DNA of 63,325 nucleotides, counting the filler, from Catajapyx aquilonaris (Eukaryota), in the NCBI GenBank assembly GCA_000934665.2. It is 2 parts of 2 records of this genome, joined end to end, with 100 filler letters (N's around TTAATTAATTAA, not from the genome) between each part and the next. Parts side by side here need not be neighbours in the genome. Positions count along the whole stretch, not along the records: positions 1 to 31,620 come from JYFJ02004508.1; 1 more part is not named here. The stretch is one strand, 5' to 3'. Under the pieces are notes generated by a model. It was not told the origin of the DNA and searched no databases. It saw nothing but the letters and a program-made list of their open reading frames with translations. Shown piece by piece: positions 230 to 17,230 of the stretch. The position numbers and the translations under genes were made by a program. The number at the start of each line of letters is the position of its first letter. Positions within the stretch are counted from its first letter, which is position 1.

Positions 230-416
230 GTCTCCCCGTCCCCGCCAGGTCCCCGCCGCGATCGTCCATTTTCTCGTTGGCTTTCAGGGCGTTGGTTCAC
301 GCCTATATTATACGGACACACTCCTCGACCGTGGTTAGCGCTTTTCGTGCTAGTGTGAGAGACTTAAATAAGAGGACGCAGAGTTGCCGTTTAGCGAGTG
401 AGGCCAGCCCCAATAC
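230..416 (+). other. Probable non-coding first exon (5' UTR) and promoter-proximal region of the SR-protein gene
   Basis: CpG-rich, pyrimidine-rich stretch ending at tandem GTGAGT donors (417, 421). The next acceptor (ttcacag, 2723) precedes the ATG exon. The 5' boundary is approximate. Confidence 0.45.
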
Positions 417-2737
417 GTGAGTGAGTACTGGAGGATTGTGAAAGCTTCAGTGGGTTGAGTGTTCATGTTTAAGACCCAACCAAAGTGCGAAACTGGGCTT
501 TTGAAATGTAGGGGTAGGCGGTGGTGCTATTAATGCGGGCTGAAGTTTTGAGCTACTTGGCCTTGTGTAGAGGCAGAAGTGTGGCAGATTGGGCTAAAGG
601 AAGGGGCTGTGGATTTAACGAGAGAATAATTGGCGTCGCAATGGGTGACAATCACTGCCAACAAATTAACTAACAAAAGGTTGATAGCTCTACCATTCAC
701 TGGTTGTATCAGTATTAATTTGGGGTGGGTTAGGATTGGAAACTGGATTGATCAGACAGGTAGCGAAGTTTGTAAATAAACTACTGGAGCTCCCCAACGA
801 AACCCTGGTACATAGAGCTTTTTCTAGTGCGGTTAAGAATCGAGTCGGGGGCGATATTACATTCACAACTTGGGTGGCGCAAATTTACATGTTGAAAAAG
901 TATGAGGTAACGGAATTAGGTCCTCATAAAATCCATCTACGAGGGTTGGTTTTTATATAGTGGCAACACTGATAATTACTACCATAGTTACAAAAGAGAC
1001 CTGTAATTAACAAATTTGTTATCTACATTCCTTCAATGTAGTTGCCCTGCACTCCATGACACCATCATGGTCACATGCGACCGTTCTAACATCGATGCCA
1101 TAGCTTAGGGCGGTGAACCAGGATGCGATCCCTTTGAACTACTCAGTCACCATCACCAGAAGCACAATCAGGTCCAAATTTGACATGAACAAGCCTCATG
1201 TCTGTCTGGATCACCCCCAGTCACTCCCTATACCAGTACATTGGTTAGCTCGGCTCCCCCACCGAGAGGGATTAGCCACGGTTGGCGCTAGAATCACTTA
1301 CCGAGATGGTAGCGCCTTACCTAGCGGCCAACTCTGAACCATTTTGGTCGACTTCTATTGGCTGGAGGTAGTACAGGGTGGACGGAAAGTTTCAGACCCC
1401 CCCGGTTTTTTAACCCTACTTTTCACAGCGTCTTTTCACATCTTTTAAAAGTCCACAAGCAGTTCTAATGTACACTATCTTTTGAAGCATAATCTTGAGA
1501 ACATCTCAGCACCTTCGCTCTCACAATTCCATTAATAACTTCGCCTCTGTGACTCATCTAAACATCCTATCTGCTTGTTGCCTTGGAGGACCCCTGGTCA
1601 TATTCTGCGTCAGATAAGGTTTTTATGACCCCTTCATGCAAATGTTGTGAACTCACTCCTGACCTTATTTTTCGCATTGGTCCATAACCTGGTCCAATAA
1701 AAATTTGAAAAGGAATGCATGAAATGGCGGACCCGGATGCATTACTTTCGAATTGGTACCATCACAGTTGTCTCCATTTTCACTTTAAAATAATTTTTTG
1801 GTGGGAAAGGACAGTAAACAATAATATTGTAACATTAGAGGGCACAATTTTAACTATTTTTACAAATGTGTGAGCTATTTCAGGTTCAAAGACACCTTTA
1901 ACTTCGGAACGGAAATGCTGATTTTGAAGTATTAATTTTTACAAATTAATTTTTTATTTGATAACCATAAAAAACGCCCTTCTTATTTTAAAAATATAAC
2001 AAGTATGGGAAAGGAGGGTAAGAGTACGGGCCTTTTATGTTTTTCTTCATAATTATTTTATTTTCCATCTAACTTGCAAGAGATTAGGGTATAATGATTA
2101 TAAGCGAAAATGCGAGAAAAACAAAAGGAAATCTGAGATACAAAATAAAACCTTTCATGAGGACACTTGTGTACTCTTGTCTGACGTGAAGGCCAAGAGT
2201 ACTATTGAGGGAGGCTAAGAGTTCGCACCTAACAACAGTCACTAATAAAATGTCAATTGCCCTCATAGCCAGAACAGGCCTCATGCCACCACTCCTGACA
2301 TTTCCCACATTGAACCCAGGACACATTGTAGTTATGAAGTGGGAGCTAGGAGTGGTAGACCTGCTCGTGACATCACAGGCTACGTGCAATTGTTCAAAAC
2401 ACGTTGGATGGAGCGGGTGACGTCACGAGCAGTGTCTATCACTTCTTACTCACACGGCCCCACTTCATAACTGCGATGCGCCCTTCTGCTGCCGTGAAAA
2501 ATGTCATTAGCAGTACGACGCGATTGATGTCCAACACTGTACTACAAGGAAAGCTTACACCCACTTTCATGATCATTTCTCAATTTGCCACTTTAAAAAA
2601 CACACCATTGCAGCTACTCATGCACCGCCTTCCTCCTCCTCCTCCTCACCCCCAAACCATCATGTCTCTATTATCATCACTACTACTTAATTTGTATTAT
2701 CTTTTATCCACTTTTCTTCACAGGTGACGCCCCCAGG

Positions 2738-2795
2738 ATGTCTCGATACCGTGATGGGTGTCCTTTGGATTGCAAAGTCTACGTGGGAGATTTAG
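2738..2795 (+). CDS. SRSF7: SRSF7/9G8-like SR splicing factor, coding exon 1 (MSRYRDGCPLDCKVYVGDLG; RNP2)
   Basis: ATG at 2738; SRSF3/7-type N-terminus CPLDCKVYVG; GTAGGA donor at 2796, phase 1. Confidence 0.92.
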
Positions 2796-3022
2796 GTAGG
2801 ATAGGTCAGGGCTTGTTCCAGGTTTTACTTGACGGGTTGGTAACCCTCATTTTTATCATTCTTGAAATCCATTCTCATTCATCGGTTCATATTTGTCACT
2901 TTTTCCTTTATTGAAGCATAGCAGCAGGGATTAATGCATGAACCTCCTTTTTTTGTTTTTCCTACACCTAACCTATCCTTCCCATCCCTCTTGCTCCTGG
3001 GGGAATAAAACAACATATCCAG

Positions 3023-3176
3023 GGTCTGGTGCGTCGAAGCAGGAGCTAGAGGACGCTTTCTCCTACTATGGACCTCTGAGGAACGTCTGGGTTGCTCGTA
3101 ACCCACCTGGATTCGCTTTTGTTGAGTTTGAGGATGCTCGGGATGCAGAAGATGCTGTACGTGGTCTTGATGGAAG
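3023..3176 (+). CDS. SRSF7: SRSF7-like coding exon 2 (RRM core: [30 protein letters not shown])
   Basis: Diagnostic SRSF3/SRSF7/RBP1 RNP1 sequence; AG at 3021-3022; GTCAGT donor at 3177; phases consistent. Confidence 0.95.
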
Positions 3177-3948
3177 GTCAGTATTAGCTGCTGCATGGTT
3201 ATACTCTCATAGCTGAGGCAATGCAAATGGGAACAAGCGAAGAAGGGATTGAGTCAAGCTTGAGTTTCAACAGGACAATTCAAGTGAATTGATTGATTAA
3301 GAAATGAAAATATTTTTTTTTAAATCAAGATACTTTTTTTGGGAGCAGTTACTTCTAAGGATGGCAAAATCATTGATTCTAGTACTAAGTAGAATAGAAG
3401 CGCCTTGGTTGAGTCTCTGTAGGGAAAAGGGTGGAAGAAAAGTGCTGACCTTAGATGTCAAGGCAGATGGTTCTCTGAAGAATCAGGTCATACTTTTCAA
3501 GGACTTGTTCAAGCATAGTTTTGCTGTGCACCATGATAATTTCTAGTGAAGTTTGTTCGAATAATTGTTGAAGAAAAAGTGAAACTCATTTTTTCCACTA
3601 TTTTAGGAATTGTGAAAATCCAGATTTTTAATGTGCAACTTTCCAAGGTTTTTTGCCCCCTCCCTTCAAATTTTACGTTGGTACAGTGTAACTTGTGCTC
3701 CAATCCAGGTGCCCAAGAGTTCCCGGGTGGTTGAATATAGCAGCTTCTATAGTGTGTTTCTTACTAGTAGGTCAACCCAAAGTCAGCACATTCCTTGGGC
3801 TAAAACAAGTCAAACATGTAGTGGGGAGAAATGTCGAGGGACCAAACTGTAAGGAGGTAGACGACCAGAATAATTGGCCAGTGTTTGCTTAGGGAGCGTG
3901 ATAAGAGCGTGATAATCGCTATTCCTCTTTCTTCACCCATGTTCTCAG

Positions 3949-4122
3949 GACTGTGTGTGGCCGTCGTGTTCGTGTAGAGCTGTCGACTGGGAAGAGCAAG
4001 TCCCGATTTCGCGGGGCTCCCCCTCGCTGGGGCCGCCCTTATCACCCGGAGGATCGCTGCTATGACTGTGGAGAGAGGGGCCACTATGCCCGAGACTGCC
4101 CCCGATACCGCCGGTACTATAG
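3949..4122 (+). CDS. SRSF7: SRSF7-like coding exon 3 (end of RRM plus CCHC zinc knuckle [14 protein letters not shown])
   Basis: The zinc knuckle separates SRSF7/9G8/x16 from SRSF3. Acceptor ttctcag at 3948; donor GTATGG at 4123, phase 2. Confidence 0.93.
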
Positions 4123-4719
4123 GTATGGAGAAATCCATACCTTTTCTCTATACCTTGGGTTTGAAGGGGGGTTTGGAGTAATGCCTGTGAAATTGAAATG
4201 ATTTACATATTCCAGATGTTTATTTTACTCTACTACTATTACAAGTACTATCAATAATCACAGGTTTTACTCTGTATGGAGTAAGTCAAAATTTTATTCC
4301 AATTAGCATGGCCTGCAAAGAGCAGGACAAAGCAATCCTGCTACATGGAATATTGAAAGTGTTTGTGAGGTCTGAGTAGGATTTGACCATGCACCTTTTA
4401 TTAGTTCTCAGTGGAATAATATTGCCCTATGCAGTAACTTATTTTTGTTCATGTCATTTGAGGGTGTAGGAATACAAATTTAGGCTCTGTTAAGGCAACA
4501 GAGCTTTTAGTAGCAGACAACATTTTAAACACTTGATGGGAGAAAGGGGGGCTTTTACAGCGTTGTTGGATTAAGTTCTGACGCCTAGGGCTGGGATGGG
4601 GTGAGTGGTAGCTTAACTCCATATTTTTGCACATTACCAAAAAGAAAGGAAAAAAATGGTATGAAGTTGGGGGCAGAGAGCAAGATTGATTGATATTCTT
4701 ATTCCTGACGTTCTTATAG

Positions 4720-4734
4720 GCGTAACGGCTGAAA
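4720..4734 (+). other. Candidate poison micro-exon A of the SR gene (in-frame TGA at 4730-4732)
   Basis: ttcttatag|GCGTAACGGCTGAAA|gtgagt. Joined to exon 3 it reads AGG CGT AAC GGC TGA. Confidence 0.5.
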
Positions 4735-5308
4735 GTGAGTTCAATAGACAGCCATGAGAGCTACTGCTACTACTACCACTGCATTCTCCTTCTACGGAGA
4801 GAGAGAGAGAGAGAGAGCAAAAGCGAGTCAGAGTATTTCGTGCGAAGGGTCTTCTCGCCCCATCGGGTGGCAGCGAGAAGGTTCTACGAGAGGGTACCCC
4901 CCAAAAGAGAGTGCACACCATGTTGTGACGGCCCCCATCTGTGTTCTGCCTGCCCGCCATGTGCCTGACCGTCCGACTTTTTTTTTGTACCTGCTCATTA
5001 CCTGGAGTGGGAAGGAAGGAAGGAGGGAGGGAGGGAGGGAGGGATGGATTGATGGATGGGAGGGAGGGGGGGAGGGATGAAACTGGGATTTTATTTGTTT
5101 ATTTATTTATTTATTTATTGTATTTAATTTTTAGAGTAAGCCCAACATTTGAAACCCTAGCATGCATATCACTTGATTGTATGTCATGACTACCACTAGC
5201 ATTTCCTTTCCTGTCATTATTGCACAGTTAAATGTTGATTTTCCATATTACAATATTCAAGCCACACATTCTTCAGTTACTATCCAGCCCATAACTGCAA
5301 CACATTAA

Positions 5309-5867
5309 CCCTCTCACCGCCGTGTCCGTGCAGCACGGACAAATACTTTTGAGAATTTGTTGCAAAAAAATCTATAAATCATTCATGAATGCGGTTTTCG
5401 GCATATTCACAAGCAAAACACGCAGAATCCGCCACAAAAATCACACACTCAAGTCCTTTGTCAGACTTTTTTGTATGACGTCATATTCCGACGGCCATAT
5501 TTAAAAAAAATTCTATGTGCAATGATCGAGATTGTATGAAGACTAGCTCAATTGTGGGAATTTAGCCATTCATTAGATCGGTTTCTAAGCAATATTTCAC
5601 ATAGAATCGTTCTTTAAACCTGTATACTTCACCCCTACGTTTTTTCTGACTCCTGAGTAGCTGCTTAGAAGTAGTTATAGCTGTTATGCCACACATGGCC
5701 TAGATTGTGGGAGCGGGCAGTAGATGTGGGGTGAGCAGCCATTCAATGCGGTTTGAATGATATAGCCGGCATGGGGCTAACACGAGCCATTAGTGAGATA
5801 TGGAATTTTTAAATTTATGATTACTTCATGCATGAGTCATGCGGGGGGAGTAGCGGCGGAGAGAGAG
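5309..5867. mobile_element. piggyBac-like MITE
   Basis: TTAA|CCCTCTCACCGCCG ... CGGCGGAGAGAGAG|TTCA (degenerate right end). Confidence 0.55.
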
Positions 5868-6657
5868 TTCATTGTTTCAGACCCCTCCTCCTCTTAAAGG
5901 GGTTCTTAACTGTTGTTTTGCTCATGCCATAATGTTGCTCATATAACTTAATATTTAATTTTAATCGTACACTGTACTGCCTTTTATTTAGTTAAATTTT
6001 ACTTATATCAGCAGTGACTCACAACTGCTTCATTTCTACAAAATCAGTTGCCTTCCTAACTCTGCATTTGTTTCACATAAGATGTTTTCCCTTTTCACAT
6101 GTTGAATTATTACTATTGGTTGCCTTATTTCAGCTTAGATTTCCTCAATACAACACCCCTTTAATCACAGAAAAATTGCAAGGCATTACAACCACTGATT
6201 ACACCTACACCATCCTTTCATCTTTCATATCTGATGTTTCCTTCATTGTGCAATAAGTTCTCAGCTGTATTATTTCTGCATCCAGTCATTCCCTCAGCCA
6301 TTTTGCTAGGAGGTACTCATCTTGACTTTAATTGCCCAAAATAGCCCTCATCCATTTTAGTTTCACCTCGGACCTTGTAGCTAAAGGTCAATGTTGTCAA
6401 AACCAGACAATCCTCAAGCAGCAGTTGTTACCCCTACACATTTGTACAATTTGAGATTCCTGTGTCCCCGATTCTTCACCTATCTCCAGTAAAATTTCTT
6501 ACCAATTACTGCCCTTTCAACTCTCCATGTAATTTTGTTCACCTGACATTCCTAAGCCGACTTGATCCTTTAATGTCTCCTATCAAAAAAAGAAAACAAA
6601 AAAAAGGAACAAGAAAAAAAAAGAGAGAAAGAAGAATAAGCACCAAGTCTCCCCTAG

Positions 6658-6945
6658 CCACTGTTTTGCTTAAAAATGGCCTACTACCAACCCACGATCG
6701 ACCCATGGGTTCACCCTACGAAGGGCAGCGAAAGAAAAAGGCTTCGAGAGTTACACAGCGTAGAGTCACTGAGATGATCGGAAGCGATCAAGTGTTGCCG
6801 ACGGGTTCATTTGCAACGGGTACAGAGAGAGCACACTGCTACTGCTACTACTCGACTAGGGGGTCTGCCTACTACAGAGTACTACTAGTGCTACTGCTGC
6901 GGTCTCACTCAGGTTGCGTTAACTGAGCGAGTCGTCGGCCTGTTT
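6658..6945 (+). other. Candidate poison cassette exon B of the SR gene (in-frame TAA at 6671-6673)
   Basis: tctcccctag acceptor at 6657; GTGAGT donor at 6946; CpG-rich island with CTAC/GAGA repeats inside an AT-rich intron. Confidence 0.45.
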
Positions 6946-7940
6946 GTGAGTCGGCTTGCAAATGGTAGGATCATGTATACTGTCCATCCCCTAAAACTGT
7001 TAAATTTTTCCCATAATTTTTTGGAAGCAATAAATTTGCAAATATCATTTTTTTTATGGCGTCAAATTAACATTTACCAAAAAATATGTGGGGAAAGTAG
7101 AGGAGGGCAGATGCATGTGACCAAAGTATATGAAAAGGTGGGTTTTGGTGTTTAAAATGCTCCAGGAAAACATTTAACAGTGTGATTGTTGCTGGGCATT
7201 TTCCTGAGGCATGTTAGTGAAGCAACTTCACTTTAATTGCATTGTCTTTGCTAAATTTATTTAGCACGTGGAGTTAGAGTGAAGCTGATTTTGATTGTTA
7301 ATAGTTTACACCAGGGGTGTCGCAGGAAAGTTTTGGCAGGGTATGCACTAGAAGGGCAAAGGCCCTTTGCTGTGTATAGCCTCACATTGTGCCTTTCTCT
7401 ACTGGGTAAATGTTGTATACCCACGTACCCCCTCTGCAACACCACTGGTTTACGCCGTTTATGATGAGCAACAATGTACAAGTAAAGCAATGGTTGATCA
7501 TTCAGGAAGAAGCACATGTTGGCTTAATATTTTTACAGCCCATACATGCACTGTTTATTCTGAGATTACAGTACACAGGGGATTAAACAAATTTATATCC
7601 ACACATTTTTGTGTATGACTGCAATTGTAGCACTTAACACTGTATCAAATAGCAGGAACTGTATTAGCTACTGCTCACAAGAAGTGGGTCATTCATTATG
7701 GTTAACATAATTGATGGACTGTGTACTAATAATGTAATTATTGTTCTTTTCTTTATATTAATTTTTATTTTTCATATTATGTGGGATTGTGTGTGAGATG
7801 TAAACACCATTGTTTGACTTTGCTTATTGTTGCTCTGACATGTTTGTTGAGATGGTGAGGCGAGTCTGAAACTGAGACATGCTATTAATATTTCTCTACT
7901 TCAAATCCCTCTCTCCCCTTTTCCTTCTTCGACCCTGAAG

Positions 7941-8231
7941 CCGTAGCCGCAGCCGCAGTCGCAGCCGTTCTCGTGGCCGCCGCCACTCTCGAAGCTACAG
8001 TCGCAGCCGTTCTAAGTCTCGCAGCCGCAGCCGCAGCCGCAGCCGCTCTCCGTCGAAGTCCCGGAGCCGCAGCAGGTCCAGGTCTCGTCACGGGAGCCAT
8101 GGAACTATGGGTGGGATTGGAGTGGGTGGTAACAGGGCAGGGGGGATGGGAGCAGGGACCAGTGGGGGAGGGGGTCAGGCTCATCGCAGCCAGACCAGGT
8201 CTCCAAGGTCCAGGAGCAGGTCCAGGTCCAG
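7941..8231 (+). CDS. SRSF7: SRSF7-like coding exon 4 (RS domain with a Gly-rich insert)
   Basis: Long pyrimidine tract then gaag at 7940; in-frame SRSRSR repeats; ends TCC AG|GTAGAG. If unspliced it reads AGG TAG (stop). Confidence 0.88.
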
Positions 8232-8728
8232 GTAGAGAGAAGATCAGCCAAGGTTGTTTTTCTTATTGTTTTGTTACTTCATATTTACTTTTTAAAGGCT
8301 TTCATCATTGTCATTTGAATTTAAAAGATCCTGGTGTAATTATGTGCCTGATTACACAAGCTAGAATGAGCTCTGCATAATGTTAAAAGTTGGTTCACGT
8401 GACCATTTTGTTACATGTTCATTCAAACTCTGTTAATACAATCTAGCAGCAATATACAGGGTGGTACTCTGTCCAACTAGACTGTTTGAGCAGAGGTTTG
8501 GAGAGGTAAGGGATGTTTCAGTTATACAGAAAGGTCTGCACAAATGCCAAATGATGAAAGAATTGAAGGTTATGTAACTTTTCCTGAAGTGTATAAAAAA
8601 AGGGATAGGCTGTTGGAACTTGCCTCTTGATTCGCCAATGAAAATATCAGCCCAATCAAATTGCTACTACCTGAGTGGCTAGATTTTCAGTCAGACTGAA
8701 ATAGTGCTACAGTTGAAGGATATACTAA

Positions 8729-9499
8729 CAAGGGAACTACCAGCACCTCCATGTCACCGATCGGACCAAAAATTACGTGGCTGGTCAATTGTAGGCCTGT
8801 TATGAATATGTGAAAATCACAAACGTCACTGCTCAAGCAAGTAATTAGCAATTGAATGTGGCCCGGTAACCACCACAACTGGGATAGAGCACAAATTGGA
8901 ACGTTCGGAATAAGTCAAGGTTGAGTAGCTCAGTTGGTAATGCTGCTGTTTACAGATCAAGGGTCCATTAAAAGAAGGACGATTGGACTCATCGTTTTGT
9001 TTATGATTCCTAGTCAATGGAAATCTGCTAAACACACCTCTGGAACCTTCCACTTTTCCTGTTTCCATGGAAATGCCCTCACACAACAATGGGAGTATAC
9101 AGTGTCAACAAAAAACAACGAAAGAACAATGTATGCTCATATTATGTGAGGGCATTTCCATGGAAACAGGTAAAGTGGAAGGTTCCAAAGGTGTGTTTGG
9201 CAGATTTCCATTGACTAGGAGTCATAAACAAAACAATGAGTCCGATCGTCCTTCTTTTAATGGACCCTTGATCTGTAAACAGCAGCATTACCAACTGAGC
9301 TACTCAACCTTGACTTATTCTGAACGTACCAAGTTGTGCTCTATCTCAGTTGTGGTGGTTACCGGGCCACATTCAATTGCTAATTACTTGCTTGAGCAGT
9401 GATGTTTGTGATTTTCACATATTCATAACAGGCCTACAATTGACCAGCCACGTAATTTTTGGTCCGAGCAGTGACGTGGAGGTGCTGGTAGTTCCCTTG
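8729..9499. mobile_element. Fold-back element with arms of about 360 bp
   Basis: 8729-9088 is the reverse complement of 9143-9499; CAAGGG/CCCTTG termini flanked by TAA on both sides. Confidence 0.9.
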
Positions 9500-9613
9500 T
9501 AAGTTGTAGCTGTGGATCAAGGGCCACTTCACTAATTGAATAATTTTAGACTATTTTTTGATCGCTTTTATAGGTCTGCAAATTATTATTATTATTTTTG
9601 CTTTCTATAGGTG

Positions 9614-10338
9614 CATCTGGAAAATAAGGTCAGTTTTTTATTAGATAAGCAATGATGTACTCCTGAATTTCCATTACATACATCTGAAAGCTTCAACTGT
9701 CTACTTTTTTTTCAAAATAGTTTCCAGCCAAATTGATGCATTTGTCATAGAGTTGCACAGGATTTTGTATGCGTATGGCATAGACGTTTGCCGCCAGCCA
9801 TTTCCCGATCCCTGAACATTGGACTGAAACCCCTCGTCATTGTCAAACCTCTGCTTTGCTTGCCATTTCTTCATGTCCATAGACAGGTGCCTCAGAAGAA
9901 AGTGATGAAACGATTCTCATTTGAATTGTTGCGACAGGGTGCCCGTATGCAAGGCAGTTGCATTGTTACGGCATGTTGAGTTCCGGGGTGTTTTTCTTGC
10001 ACGACAATGCTGCTCGCATATTATGCGAGCAGGCATTGTCATGCAAGAAAAACATGGAGGTGCTGGTAGTTCCCTTGTAAGAAATGCCAAGCAAAGCAGA
10101 GGTTTGACAATGACGAGGAGTTCCAGTCCAGTGTTCAGGGATCGGGAAATGGCTGGCTGCAAACGTCTATGACATTGGCATCCAAAATCCTGTGCAACTA
10201 TGTGACAAATTCCTCAATTTGGCTGGAAACTATTTTGAAAACAGAAGACAGTTGAAGCTTTCACATGTACATATGTAATGGAAATTCAGGGGTACATATG
10301 TTGCTTTTCTAATAAAAAACTCGCCTTATTTTCCTGAC
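9614..10338. mobile_element. Older inverted-repeat element with arms of about 255 bp
   Basis: 9614-9871 and 10078-10338 are reverse-complementary with many mismatches. Confidence 0.8.
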
Positions 10339-10728
10339 GAGCCAAATATTTGTGTGCAAGGTTTGGGAGGTGGGGTGGGAGGGAAAAAGTAACAAAAGGG
10401 TTGGTATGGGTTGGTTGTGGGAAGGAAAAGGGGTTGGGATTATGATTTGTACAGAAATTTGTATCAGATGTTGATTGCTTTCATTGGGCCATTGCTTAAG
10501 TATAGTGGAATCCGTTTTGAGCAGCAAAGTGGATCCGACATTATAGCTTTCCTCTCATATCCAAGTGTTCAATGTGTTCTGACCTTGGATGATGATTTTT
10601 TTTCAGTATTGCCATTTGGATATGTTTTAAACAAGCTTCTTTTGTTGGCCACCTTATGTCTTGCTACTTGCTACGTATATTATGGGGGCATATTGGGTTG
10701 AAATAGTGCATAAGGCTGTTACATTATA

Positions 10729-11168
10729 CAGGGTGAAGGGAAACTTGCGCCCAATCGCCAGGTAGACTTATAGTACTCATAAAACTAATATAGGGATGTG
10801 CAATTAGTTTTTGGTTCTCTTGCGTAGTTAATGTGTACGGCGCCCTTAAAGTGTAGACGGCCAAATGGTGGAATATGAGGCAAAAACGACAGTGTGTGGG
10901 TGTAGTACCAAGATTCTTACTCTGACGGGATTTGATCGCTTTTTGCACATGGAAGATGTGTTAGGGGACCATGGCAAGGGACCGGAGGCCCTCGAACTGA
11001 CTTTTGCTTCCTAGAAGCTGGCGGAACGGATGTGACGTCACGAAACTTTGACAGTGTCGTACGCATTAACTACACAAGGGAGCCCAAAACTAATTGCACA
11101 TTCCTATATTAGTTTTGCGAGTACTATCCGTCTACCTGACGATTGGGGGCGAGTTTCCCTTCACCCTG
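10729..11168. mobile_element. Tc1/mariner-type MITE (TA|CAGGGTG...CACCCTG|TA)
   Basis: TIRs of about 80 bp; TA flanks. Confidence 0.85.
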
Positions 11169-12329
11169 TATAATTTTTATGGACCTAGACAGCTTCCCCA
11201 TTTGGCTTCTTTCCCCCAAAAAAAGGGTGTTCTTTTTCAAAACGAAGAGGCTAGCTGGAAAACGGATTCCACTGGATTTCAAAGAGCTGCATGCAAGTGT
11301 TTAATTTTTTAAAAATTACTTACACATGCCAAAAAGTTAGCCACTTGTTAGCCAGACTCCACAGCTAGTTAGTGTTGAGTGAACACTATCTCATATCCTG
11401 CATATCAAAAAAAAATTGGCTAATATACAAGCAGGTTTGTAAAGGGTAAGAGAGCACATGGTTACCAGAATAGAGCAGGACTTCTTAAATAAAACGTAGC
11501 TGGTCAGGTGGGGCTTGGGGGNGGGGGGGAGAGAGCGAGAACAATTAAAGTGGTAATGACGCCTGTAGAGAGGATTTGGATGCTGTGTCGAGGCAGAACA
11601 GCCACCTCAGTATCAACCAGTGCCTTGTGTTGCATTAAGATGCATTTACATGTGGGCGATTTGATCGGCCATCTCATCGCCGAGTCATGAAATCCTAACG
11701 AAAGCAGTGATTTGGGCCGAAAGTAGCACTCGCATTTAAGACGATGACGTCGCTCAGGTCCCTCAAGTCTGTTTGAAGTAGACGATGACATCACCGCACA
11801 TCGCCTGCTTGTAAACATATGGGCGATGTATAAGGGCTATCTCTTGCGTCATGACGTTAGAACCGCTACAGCTCATGGGGGATGTTATCGCCCACATGTA
11901 AACGCACCTTTAGGCCCCGTTTATATTTTCGACTTAATAGGGACGACTGGCTGCAATGCGCAGGTGCTCAATCCGTCGGCCGCCCTTAGTGGTGAGCCTC
12001 CCAGTTGAAAGGAAATAGATCCTGCTCGAATTTGTGTTCGTCTGGGAAGACATGCCTACTACAGACAGTCGCTTCTACGAAGTCAAAAATGCAAATGGGA
12101 TCTTACAGGGAAAATTCTCACAATTGAGTTTAATCACTGCCATGCATAGAACAATTGGGTGGGATCAAACTCATCGATGAGAATAATTCTCACTGCTATG
12201 CAGCATAATGCTGACACCTAATGACTGGTTTCGTTAATCCAAGTATATACCATTGGATCCTATTATTTTAACCACAAACCAAGCCTAGCCTGTAGCTAAT
12301 GTATGTACAACAACATAGCTATTTTGAAG

Positions 12330-15214: not shown

Positions 15215-15287
15215 GACCCCTGGAAAGGTGGGTGACAAAGGGAAGAGTCCTGACAAGCAAACTAATGGATCTGGAGGAGGAGACTAA
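15215..15287 (+). CDS. SRSF7: Probable terminal coding exon of the SRSF7-like gene (RTPGKVGDKGKSPDKQTNGSGGGD*)
   Basis: Strong acceptor tttctctcttgttcttcgcag; compatible with phase 2; TAA at 15285-15287; AATAAA at 15421. Confidence 0.65.
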
Positions 15288-16022
15288 TTTTAATCAAAGG
15301 GGAAGGAAAGAGTGTGTTTCCCTTATTATAACGAAGTAAAAAATGTATTCTGCTCATGTTGAGAGCAATCAGTTAAGTTAGATCTAGAGTTTTTCGAAAG
15401 CTCTTCCTTTTGAAGGGTGTAATAAAGGAACCATTCACATGAGGGAGTAGGGTTAGTGCCCATGATCTAAGTAATGTCATTTGAACGACACTCAATGCAC
15501 TTGTAACTGTTTCTCCATAGTGAATGGCCCCTGATCATAATCACATTGTAGCACGTAAGGCAAAGCTAATGCTTTGCAAAAAGATATTGTCATAGTCAAG
15601 ATTTACGTGTAGGGTTGAGAAACTTGTTTTGATGATAGAAATTGTGTTACATTTTATGTAGAATTGTAATTCCAGGGTGTGTGTGTGAATTAATGCTTGG
15701 TGAAGTAGGCATCCATTGCATTAGCATATAAGGGATTTTGGAAAAGAAAGGAAAAAGAACTTCTAAGAGATTACACATTCCACCACACACACCATGGTAG
15801 TAGTATAGCACGTCCATTGTTCAGGCATTTTCTTGGTTTTATGTATTGTGTTGACATGGGATTTGGGAACACGTTATGTAGCAAAATGATGTATCTTTGC
15901 TGAAATGAAAGTGTTTTTTCCCCTGCCCCCCTATATATTGTTGTAAAGAGTCGGTAGTCTTGATTTTCCCACCTAAACAGGAGTGAAATGAGATTGGATT
16001 ATAGACAGGTTCATAGGCTATA

Positions 16023-16524
16023 CAGGGTGTTTGAGAGTCACTGTTCAAGTGCCCGCGAGGGGGTGGGGAAAAATCGTAGGTGGCGACAACCCCGGTCGGT
16101 TTTATAAAACAATTAGAAATACGGCAGTAATCAATTTATTTATTACGGCCGTACAGCGTGACGTCACATCCTTTCTGTTTGAATTGACTGGCGCGGACTG
16201 GCAGGTGGAGTGGGTTGCACTGAAAAAGGCGCTCTCCTGCTATACCGGCAGGGTACTGTACACACCATTGTACAGTACCCTACCGGTATAGCAGGAGAGT
16301 GACTTTTTCAGTGCAACCCGCAAGGCTAAAAAGCCGTTCAACCCACTAGTGCACCTGCCAGTCAATTCGAAGAGAAAGGATGTGAGTCACGCCGTACGGC
16401 CGTAATAAATTAATTGATTACTGCCGTATTTCGAATTGTTTTATAAAACCGACCGGGTTGTCGCCACCTACTATTTTTCCCCACCCCCCCACGTGCACTT
16501 GACCTGTGACTCTGAAACACCTTG
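16023..16524. mobile_element. Tc1/mariner-type MITE, nearly fully palindromic
   Basis: TA|CAGGGTGTTT ... AAACACCTTG|TA; long inverted arms. Confidence 0.85.
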
Positions 16525-16944
16525 TATTACATGGAAACCGGTGGGATTGGAAGCCAAGAAACCTGAATATTGAAGAGGCATGCAGTAAGATCATGAAATC
16601 TCCCAAGTGGCATGGTCGGGCATGGTGGTCTAGTGGCCATGCTACTGGTGAGCCAAGTGGGGTTCAAATCCCATCACCTTTGCTTGGTTGGGTATTTTTC
16701 CACTTTCACCCAATGTGTCTGGGCAGACTTGCACTCCCTTCTCTGCCCAAGGCCAAGAGAAAAGTTCTGATATTTATGAGGGTCTGAAATGACTTGAGAA
16801 CCCTCCTCTCCTAAGAGGGCTCTGCCCCACGGACTAGGTGTCTCAGGACTGGTCACTCTTATCGCCTTGGGAGGGAAATGGGGAGGTAATGCAGAACGGA
16901 ACCATAGGTGGCACGTTGATCAGGGGCCAGACTGCAGAGGAACG

Positions 16945-17230
16945 CGTGCCAGTGGACTGGTGGTTAGCGCACTCGCCTCTGGTCCCAAGGTTGTGGGTTC
17001 GAACCCGGCAGAGGTCGGTGACTTTTCTCTGGGTGGTAGAAAAGTGAGAGTGCGCCTTCCTTCGGAGGGGAAGTAAAGCCGTTGGTCCCGTGTGCTTGTG
17101 ACATTGCGCGAGTGCACGTTAAAGATCCCCAGAGTGGCCAAATTTCCAGGAGGAGGACCACCCCCGGGCGTCGGTGTTGAACCTTAGAGGCAGAAATAGG
17201 CCGACGTTAAGCCCCGCTGATAAAAGACCA
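16945..17230 (+). mobile_element. tRNA-derived SINE with a Deu/Nin-like central domain
   Basis: TGGTTAGCGCACTCGCC...GGTTCGAACCC head; CTTCGGAGGGGAAGTAAAGCCGTTGGTCCC core. The domain assignment is from memory. Confidence 0.7.

Follow-up and report, generated by a model that had tools for sequence, protein, structure and literature searches.

The window, meaning the whole stretch of 63,325 nucleotides that was analysed, carries an SRSF7-like gene on its plus strand within the first 15 kb, and the exons and splice elements of the gene described below lie on that strand. The full product of this gene is a protein of 249 aa with an RRM, a CCHC zinc knuckle and an RS tail (translation and Pfam). 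The 5′UTR exon (249..416, start approximate) is placed by the letters of an RNA contig (contig 1), in which 168 unplaced letters lie ahead of 2724 and the 30 letters displayed match the window up to 416, where GTGAGT follows. The start-codon exon (2724..2795, ATG at 2738) is defined by junctions in the spliced contig and by translation, and the RRM exon (3023..3176; Pfam RRM_1, E=5.4e-14) likewise has both of its junctions in that contig. Since the 5′UTR exon ends at 416, the zinc-knuckle exon (3949..4122; Pfam zf-CCHC, E=6e-7) is the fourth of the transcript and not the third, as it had been numbered in the initial annotation. Translation of 7941..8231 gives the Arg/Ser-rich RS-domain exon, the 3′ end of which is joined to 15215; a contig end left loose at 8232 matches approximately 15215-15216, and the last junction is therefore 8231^15215. 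The coding start of the last exon runs over 15215..15287 with the normal stop TAA at 15285-15287.

The zinc-knuckle exon has two donors at its end, after 4113 and after 4122, which are 9 nt apart and both in frame, with use of the donor after 4122 predicted from sequence only. Decapod homologues likewise vary by short in-frame stretches at the 3′ junction of this exon. A search with the knuckle exon returned 98 homologues, mostly named SRSF7 or SRSF3-like, of which the best were from malacostracan crustaceans (82-88% identity), followed by insects and chelicerates. Judged by these homologues the window gene is arthropod-like, and its domains, its RS tail and the names of its homologues place it in the SRSF3/7 clade of SR proteins. 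Long near-perfect inverted repeats of a foldback/MITE-like kind were seen by eye at 8740-9500, 9700-10330, 10720-11170 and 16000-16520, positions that fall in the last intron (7 kb) and in the sequence flanking the gene on its 3′ side, and tRNA-like stretches, possible SINE heads, were seen by eye 3′ of the gene at 16600-16700 and 16950-17010.

Splicing from the zinc-knuckle exon to a stop-containing exon

The RNA evidence consists of contigs from the single public run (X1) in which this DNA was found, its type unrecorded and its contigs plainly spliced, aligned to 2700-8300. Contig 1 (799 nt) is made up of the 5′UTR exon followed by 2724-2795, 3023-3176, 3949-4113 and 4720-4959. All three of its joints within 2700-8300, 4113^4720 among them, have GT..AG ends, and over 4720-4959 it is colinear with the genome, gapless and with no foreign letters. 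By joining the knuckle exon to 4720, contig 1 confirms the acceptor 4719/4720 and the in-frame TGA beyond it; of the junction 4122^4720 originally predicted the acceptor stood, while the donor proved to be that after 4113. The acceptor region (4705..4719) is composed of a branch-like CTGAC at 4705, a pyrimidine tract and AG, and the strings on which the prediction had been based are present, namely CTGAC itself, the 30-mer at 4711-4740 that takes in the acceptor, 15 nt and GTGAGT, and, by string search, CTACTGCTACTACTACC at 4761, TCTACGGAGAGAGAG at 4791 and TCTACGAGAG at 4883.

The portion of the exon covered by RNA (4720..4959) contains close to its start the hexamer GGCTGA (4727..4732), which ends in the stop TGA 4730-4732. 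By translation this stop is in frame after the knuckle exon, as had been claimed, and it lies upstream of the 7941 acceptor and of 8231^15215, so that a splice event after the zinc-knuckle exon does place a stop ahead of the RS exons. The product translated via 4113^4720 is 129 aa in length, compared with 249 aa for the full protein, and ends in Asn-Gly-stop.

The unit first proposed at this position was a poison micro-exon of 15 nt (4720-4734), with a cluster of SR-binding motifs in the intron downstream of it. In the one run available contig 1 reads through 4734|GTGAGT and continues 225 nt past AAA|GTGAGT at 4735, and because it extends to at least 4959 the motif block is exon and not intron. 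The cluster itself (4761..4892), with CTAC repeats, a (GA)n run and two TCTACG motifs, accordingly falls inside the exon. A micro-exon spliced at both ends, with the motif block as a downstream intronic enhancer and contig 1 as a half-spliced intermediate, could be defended on the grounds that the GTGAGT at 4735..4740 matches MAG|GTRAGT at 8/9 positions and is the sole site of at least 7/9 in 4735-5600, that 15 nt would preserve the frame with the stop inside, and that a contig from which the upstream intron has been removed with the downstream sequence unspliced is the expected leftover of a two-step removal. It is made quite unlikely by the passage of the sole RNA contig beyond this donor, by the GC and CpG content of the block, which is exon-like, and by the contigs of run X1, among which there is no joint from 4734 to either 6658 or 7941, the two acceptors that had been suggested; the comparison with relatives below points the same way. 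No other site in 4735-5600 approaches 4735 in donor strength, and it is therefore possible that a minor isoform has the micro-exon or that this site aids exon definition through U1 binding.

A long exon entered at 4720 may continue through 4960..5135, where GGGA/TTTA low-complexity runs lead up to a candidate donor, AGA|GTAAGC at 5136, which with 6/9 to the consensus ties with 4961 as the best after 4735. Neither the 3′ end of the poison exon nor a productive knuckle-to-RS junction is found among the contigs of run X1, which lacks cover at 3261-3821, 4196-4569 and 5131-7000 (6658-6963 included), gaps that are uninformative either way. No match to Rfam was obtained in 4000-8300 at E up to 1, and no Pfam family was assigned to three long stop-to-stop frames in the blocks 4720-4990 and 6658-6963. 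An ATG at 4754 opens an ORF of 108 codons (4754-5077, stop at 5078) in the same frame as the upstream coding sequence, partly of low complexity and without a Pfam match. This ORF ends before the best candidate donor at 5136, and no comparable ORF is present in the ant, termite-like and copepod-like exons described below, the longest there being 18-40 codons.

RNA is also present from the downstream part of the intron (7097..7940), with contig 2 covering 7097-7697 and contig 3 covering 7692-7953 and crossing unspliced into the RS exon. These unspliced contigs over 7097-7953 suggest retention of the downstream part of the intron, for which the copepod-like cDNAs L004 and L001 provide parallels, as do the SRSF3 and SRSF7 genes of vertebrates. 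If the whole of 4720-7940 were retained once the acceptor had been used, the event would consist in the choice of an alternative 3′ splice site, with the intron kept in and the RNA detained in the nucleus, rather than in the inclusion of a cassette. In keeping with such an arrangement the insert of L004 and L001 extends as far as the RS exon, where its last letters (a pyrimidine tract and AG) are those of a 3′ splice site left unspliced; in the L004 form an alternative acceptor is thus used and all of the sequence from there to the RS exon is kept. In vertebrates, too, retention and binding are seen for the introns on either side of the SRSF3 and SRSF7 poison exons (PMC5737842). Set against this are the size of the insert that would result here, 3.2 kb, and the termite-like locus, where the exon is plainly a cassette ending at a donor of its own and the intron beyond it is AT-rich and evolves fast. 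Retention of the entire segment is on this evidence rather unlikely, while still carrying appreciable weight.

Composition and motif content

The segment 4720-4990 has a GC content of 0.535 and a CpG o/e of 0.72, compared with 0.15 and 0.24 in the flanking intron at 4123-4719 and 6964-7940, which bears out its earlier description as a CpG-retaining block. It has no second copy within the window, where BLAST of the intron parts found only a (TTTA)n run to be repeated. A second CpG-retaining, CTAC-rich block lies in the same intron at 6658..6963 (CpG o/e 0.88, GC 0.52), and joining it to the knuckle exon would bring stops into frame. One possibility is that this block is a second poison exon; another is that it represents the distal half of an ancestral exon of approximately 500 nt that was split by inserted DNA (5140-6657). 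An A-rich tract at 6585-6640, resembling the tail of a retroposon, precedes the block.

Motifs were counted in block A (4720-4990), block B (6658-6963) and the exons of relatives and compared with 500 dinucleotide shuffles. CTAC occurs six times in block A (0.8 expected) and ten times in block B (2.4 expected), and in neither case did any of the 500 shuffles reach the count, although the signal in the window comes partly from a short CTA/CTG repeat. Outside the window the enrichment is weak or absent, with five occurrences in L004 (2.0 expected, reached by 15/500 shuffles), five in the termite-like exon (2.4 expected, 37/500), four in the ant (1.9 expected, 51/500) and one in L001 (1.5 expected, 396/500). 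WCWWC is enriched only in block A (2/500 shuffles) and in the termite-like exon (3/500). GAYGAY is the vertebrate SRSF7 iCLIP motif; it is unenriched in all of the exons and blocks counted, with 0-1 sites, and the literal ACGAGAGA does not occur in 4601-7000. Of the motifs, only the enrichment of the CU-rich, SRSF3-like CTAC type stands up statistically. With both strands of the 63-kb window included, AGG-N6-GGCTRA is present at a single place, and with this uniqueness and the enrichment of CTAC the observation exceeds chance.

Conservation of the acceptor and stop in relatives

The alignment of the knuckle exon was scanned against metagenome contigs, which gave 49 loci, none of them from a close relative of the source species. 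The sequence downstream of the knuckle was read in 39 of these, 17 of which continue into an RS-rich tail like canonical cDNAs and two of which are cDNAs with an insert; the other 20 end in or shortly past the knuckle exon, as intron-bearing genomic DNA would. By reading, the intron after the knuckle exon is of phase 2 in all seven lineages.

In an ant-like genomic locus (L011) the knuckle exon is followed by an AT-rich intron of approximately 1.4 kb and then by an acceptor, G, six bases and GGCTGA, beyond which there is a GC-rich and CpG-rich block that contains CTAC and TCTACG motifs. When the knuckle exon of L011 is read on into this exon, the tail is Ser-Cys-Gly-stop, identical to that of the annotated ant isoform. 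The same module, AG|G-N6-GGCTGA, is present in eight of nine termite-like loci (L025-L032) approximately 190 nt past the knuckle exon, the ninth (L024) having just 78 nt downstream. In the window, in L011 and in these termite-like loci GGCTGA occupies the same offset from the acceptor, exon positions +8 to +13, and the termite-like TATTCCTAAC...TAG upstream of the acceptor aligns with and resembles the TATTCCTGAC...TAG of the window. The termite-like exon is 527 nt long, ending at its own GTGAGT donor, and is followed by an AT-rich intron and then the RS exon. Between two of these loci, L027 and L026, the poison exon differs at 2 of 527 nt, the flanking introns at 6/193 and 19/435 (25/628 nt together) and the coding exons at 3/197 and 9/276. 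In the copepod-like material the cDNA L004 differs from the canonical cDNA L002 in nothing but an insert of 520 nt, placed precisely where the knuckle and RS exons meet; L001 is similar, and the first in-frame stop of both L004 and L001 is within GGCTAA.

These relatives bear directly on the 15-nt unit discussed above. A GT at the place matching 4735 is absent in L011, L027 and L004, so the donor of the micro-exon is not conserved in the ant, termite-like and copepod-like counterparts, and the exon lengths found there are 527 nt and, for the L004 insert, 520 nt rather than 15.

Conservation of the intron between species, which had been put forward as a check on the proposal, is seen for the acceptor-GGCTGA module in the ant and the termite-like loci and, between these distant species, is not seen for the exon body. 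The latter gave no significant alignment to the ant, termite-like and copepod-like exons past approximately 45 nt around the acceptor, the best local alignment Z being 2.5-2.8 compared with 1.9-2.2 for a control intron, and neither block A nor block B had convincing similarity to these exons or to that of L038 outside the acceptor region. In L034 (494-735), L036 (960-1455) and L038 (3479-3965), genomic loci read by eye, a GC-richer block was seen in the intron after the knuckle exon. These blocks have AG and GTRAGT bounds and an early in-frame stop, GGCTGA is absent from them, and the proteins look non-arthropod.

The support from RNA is one contig from one run, which would be compatible with splicing noise at a chance cryptic acceptor. 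The occurrence of the same acceptor-to-stop module in ant and termite-like genomes, together with the annotated isoforms of many arthropods, renders noise highly improbable.

Truncated isoforms among arthropod proteins

At the protein level 50 of the 98 homologues are without an RS-rich tail after the knuckle, and 15 of these 50 end in Gly, a C-terminus found in none of the 48 homologues that have RS-rich tails. In 12 of the 15 the tail is no longer than 23 residues past the knuckle; nine of these 12 are named, being from an amphipod, a dragonfly, two bugs and five Hymenoptera. Several of the short Gly-ending homologues are NCBI models of the 'isoform X2/X3/X9' kind, and annotation for many arthropods includes truncated isoforms, 122-145 aa long, that share this short tail. 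The RS-less Gly-stop isoforms of the 12 arthropod database proteins are explained by use of the entry module (acceptor-GGCTGA), and the recurrent models of approximately 130 aa labelled 'isoform X2/X3' of arthropod SRSF7 by the poison-exon event.

The breadth of this annotation favours an alternative in which the event would chiefly yield a stable RS-less protein of 129 aa (RRM and knuckle) with a regulatory role of its own, for example in competing with the full-length factor, with no decay of the message. In keeping with this the truncated protein has almost no foreign tail, because the stop is met just four codons in. It has been noted that SR isoforms lacking the RS domain could be active (PMC2265522) and that a truncated SRSF3 of 124 aa is encoded (PMC10321290). 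Neither AATAAA nor ATTAAA is present in 4720-5400 to provide for a short terminal exon, and a four-codon tail does not explain the high conservation of the non-coding body of the 527-nt termite-like exon, such that a stable protein as the main output is unlikely.

Proposed role of the exon

The best explanation, to which we attach a probability of about 0.7, is that 4720 is the entry of a long conserved poison exon, or a poison 3′ splice site, in an arthropod SRSF7 orthologue. The acceptor 4719/4720 is real, expressed and conserved, and the architecture is that of a long poison exon or poison acceptor and not of a micro-exon. The function of the event, including NMD, the binding protein and feedback, and the 3′ end of the exon are what we infer in the following scheme.

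Use of the acceptor 4719/4720 brings in TGA four codons on (4730-4732) and leaves the message coding for the RRM and zinc knuckle alone (129 aa), while what remains of the exon would form, together with the RS exons and the last exon, a long 3′ UTR of the poison message. The body of the exon spans at least 4720-4959 and may reach approximately 5135. It is dense in CTAC, GCTAC and TCTACG motifs, which would act as putative enhancers to which the SRSF7-like protein, or another SR protein, binds to promote acceptor 4720. Abundant SR activity would tilt splicing towards the unproductive form, to be directed to NMD or to give the RS-less protein, such that the level of the full-length factor would be limited. 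A negative feedback is thereby proposed on the model of vertebrate SRSF3 and SRSF7.

Comparison with known systems

Poison exons in SR genes are a textbook form of homeostatic splicing control and of ultraconserved non-coding DNA, and their origin is debated. In Drosophila, Kumar and Lopez are reported to have described in 2005 the self-regulation of Rbp1 and Rbp1-like via a stop-containing splice form with conserved intronic binding sites; Rbp1 is an arthropod SRSF3-type factor, a different gene from that in the window and without a knuckle. The poison exon is thus of a kind already well known as a way for such genes to limit their own output, and the one feature that might be new to a specialist is that arthropod lineages share the acceptor-GGCTGA module down to the single base. 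Among the literature matches listed there was no paper on an arthropod SRSF7/x16 poison exon, although Lareau et al. 2007 may bear on the point, and among the same matches the truncated isoforms annotated in many arthropods appear to be undescribed.

The base-for-base conserved entry in this arthropod, ant and termites provides a testable handle on the age of the SRSF3/7 event and bears on what besides the stop codon is selected. It is possible, and is offered here tentatively, that the SRSF3/SRSF7 poison exon is an ancient animal feature of one phase-2 intron and not a vertebrate invention, with the arthropod entry module (branch site, acceptor and G-N6-GGCTGA stop) unchanged base for base between insects and the arthropod-like genome studied here, whose closest proteins are from crustaceans. 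Lareau and Brenner 2015 (PMC4379411), in a study of the SRSF4/5/6 group, argue that most SR events had independent origins, the SRSF5 event alone being ancient. Were the event considered here also ancient, it would be a second case of unproductive splicing in an SR gene of SRSF5-like antiquity, and the GGCTGA hexamer itself would be a functional element beyond the stop codon.

The C. elegans rsp-6 gene offers a likeness in being an invertebrate small SR gene with a PTC-containing cassette exon and a stop isoform without an RS domain (PMC2265522). The rsp-6 stop isoform is stabilised in smg mutants (PMC2265522, Table 2), which shows NMD dependence for that gene, whereas that of the window gene is putative, and the likeness is one of gene type and isoform.

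Vertebrate SRSF3 and SRSF7 have poison cassette exons in a conserved third intron, each protein binding this intron and exon of its own gene, and the poison isoforms rise under cycloheximide or UPF1 knock-down (PMC5737842). The location in the window matches the intron that carries these exons, as the initial annotation had proposed. With the SRSF7 (9G8) exon of intron 3 the window gene shares a host with RRM, CCHC knuckle and RS domain, the position between knuckle and RS exons, an early stop and an RS-less frame (PMC5737842; PMC12179342), and parts of the flanking intron are retained in RNA in each case (PMC5737842). GAYGAY is not enriched here and the likeness is one of layout. The SRSF7 Split-ORF (Konigs et al. 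2020, via PMC12179342), in which a second ORF runs from the poison exon into the RS domain, lacks a conserved counterpart here, and NMD and self-binding, demonstrated in vertebrates, are presumed by analogy for the window gene.

The likeness to exon 4 of vertebrate SRSF3 (SRp20) is that of a long non-coding alternative exon with a premature stop, the use of which is promoted there by the protein itself (PMC10321290 and PMC3439968). SRSF3 differs from the window gene in having no zinc knuckle, and conservation of its exon is documented in PMC10321290 only within vertebrates, down to a coelacanth. Overexpression of SRSF3 increases poison-exon inclusion in both SRSF3 and SRSF7, and its motif is CU-rich with no G (PMC3439968), to be compared with the CTAC-type motif enriched in the window. 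The sizes are also of the same kind to compare, with SRSF3 exon 4 at 456 nt and its truncated protein at 124 aa (PMC10321290) set beside 527 nt for the termite-like exon, 520 nt for the L004 insert, at least 240 nt for the exon in the window and 129 aa for its product.
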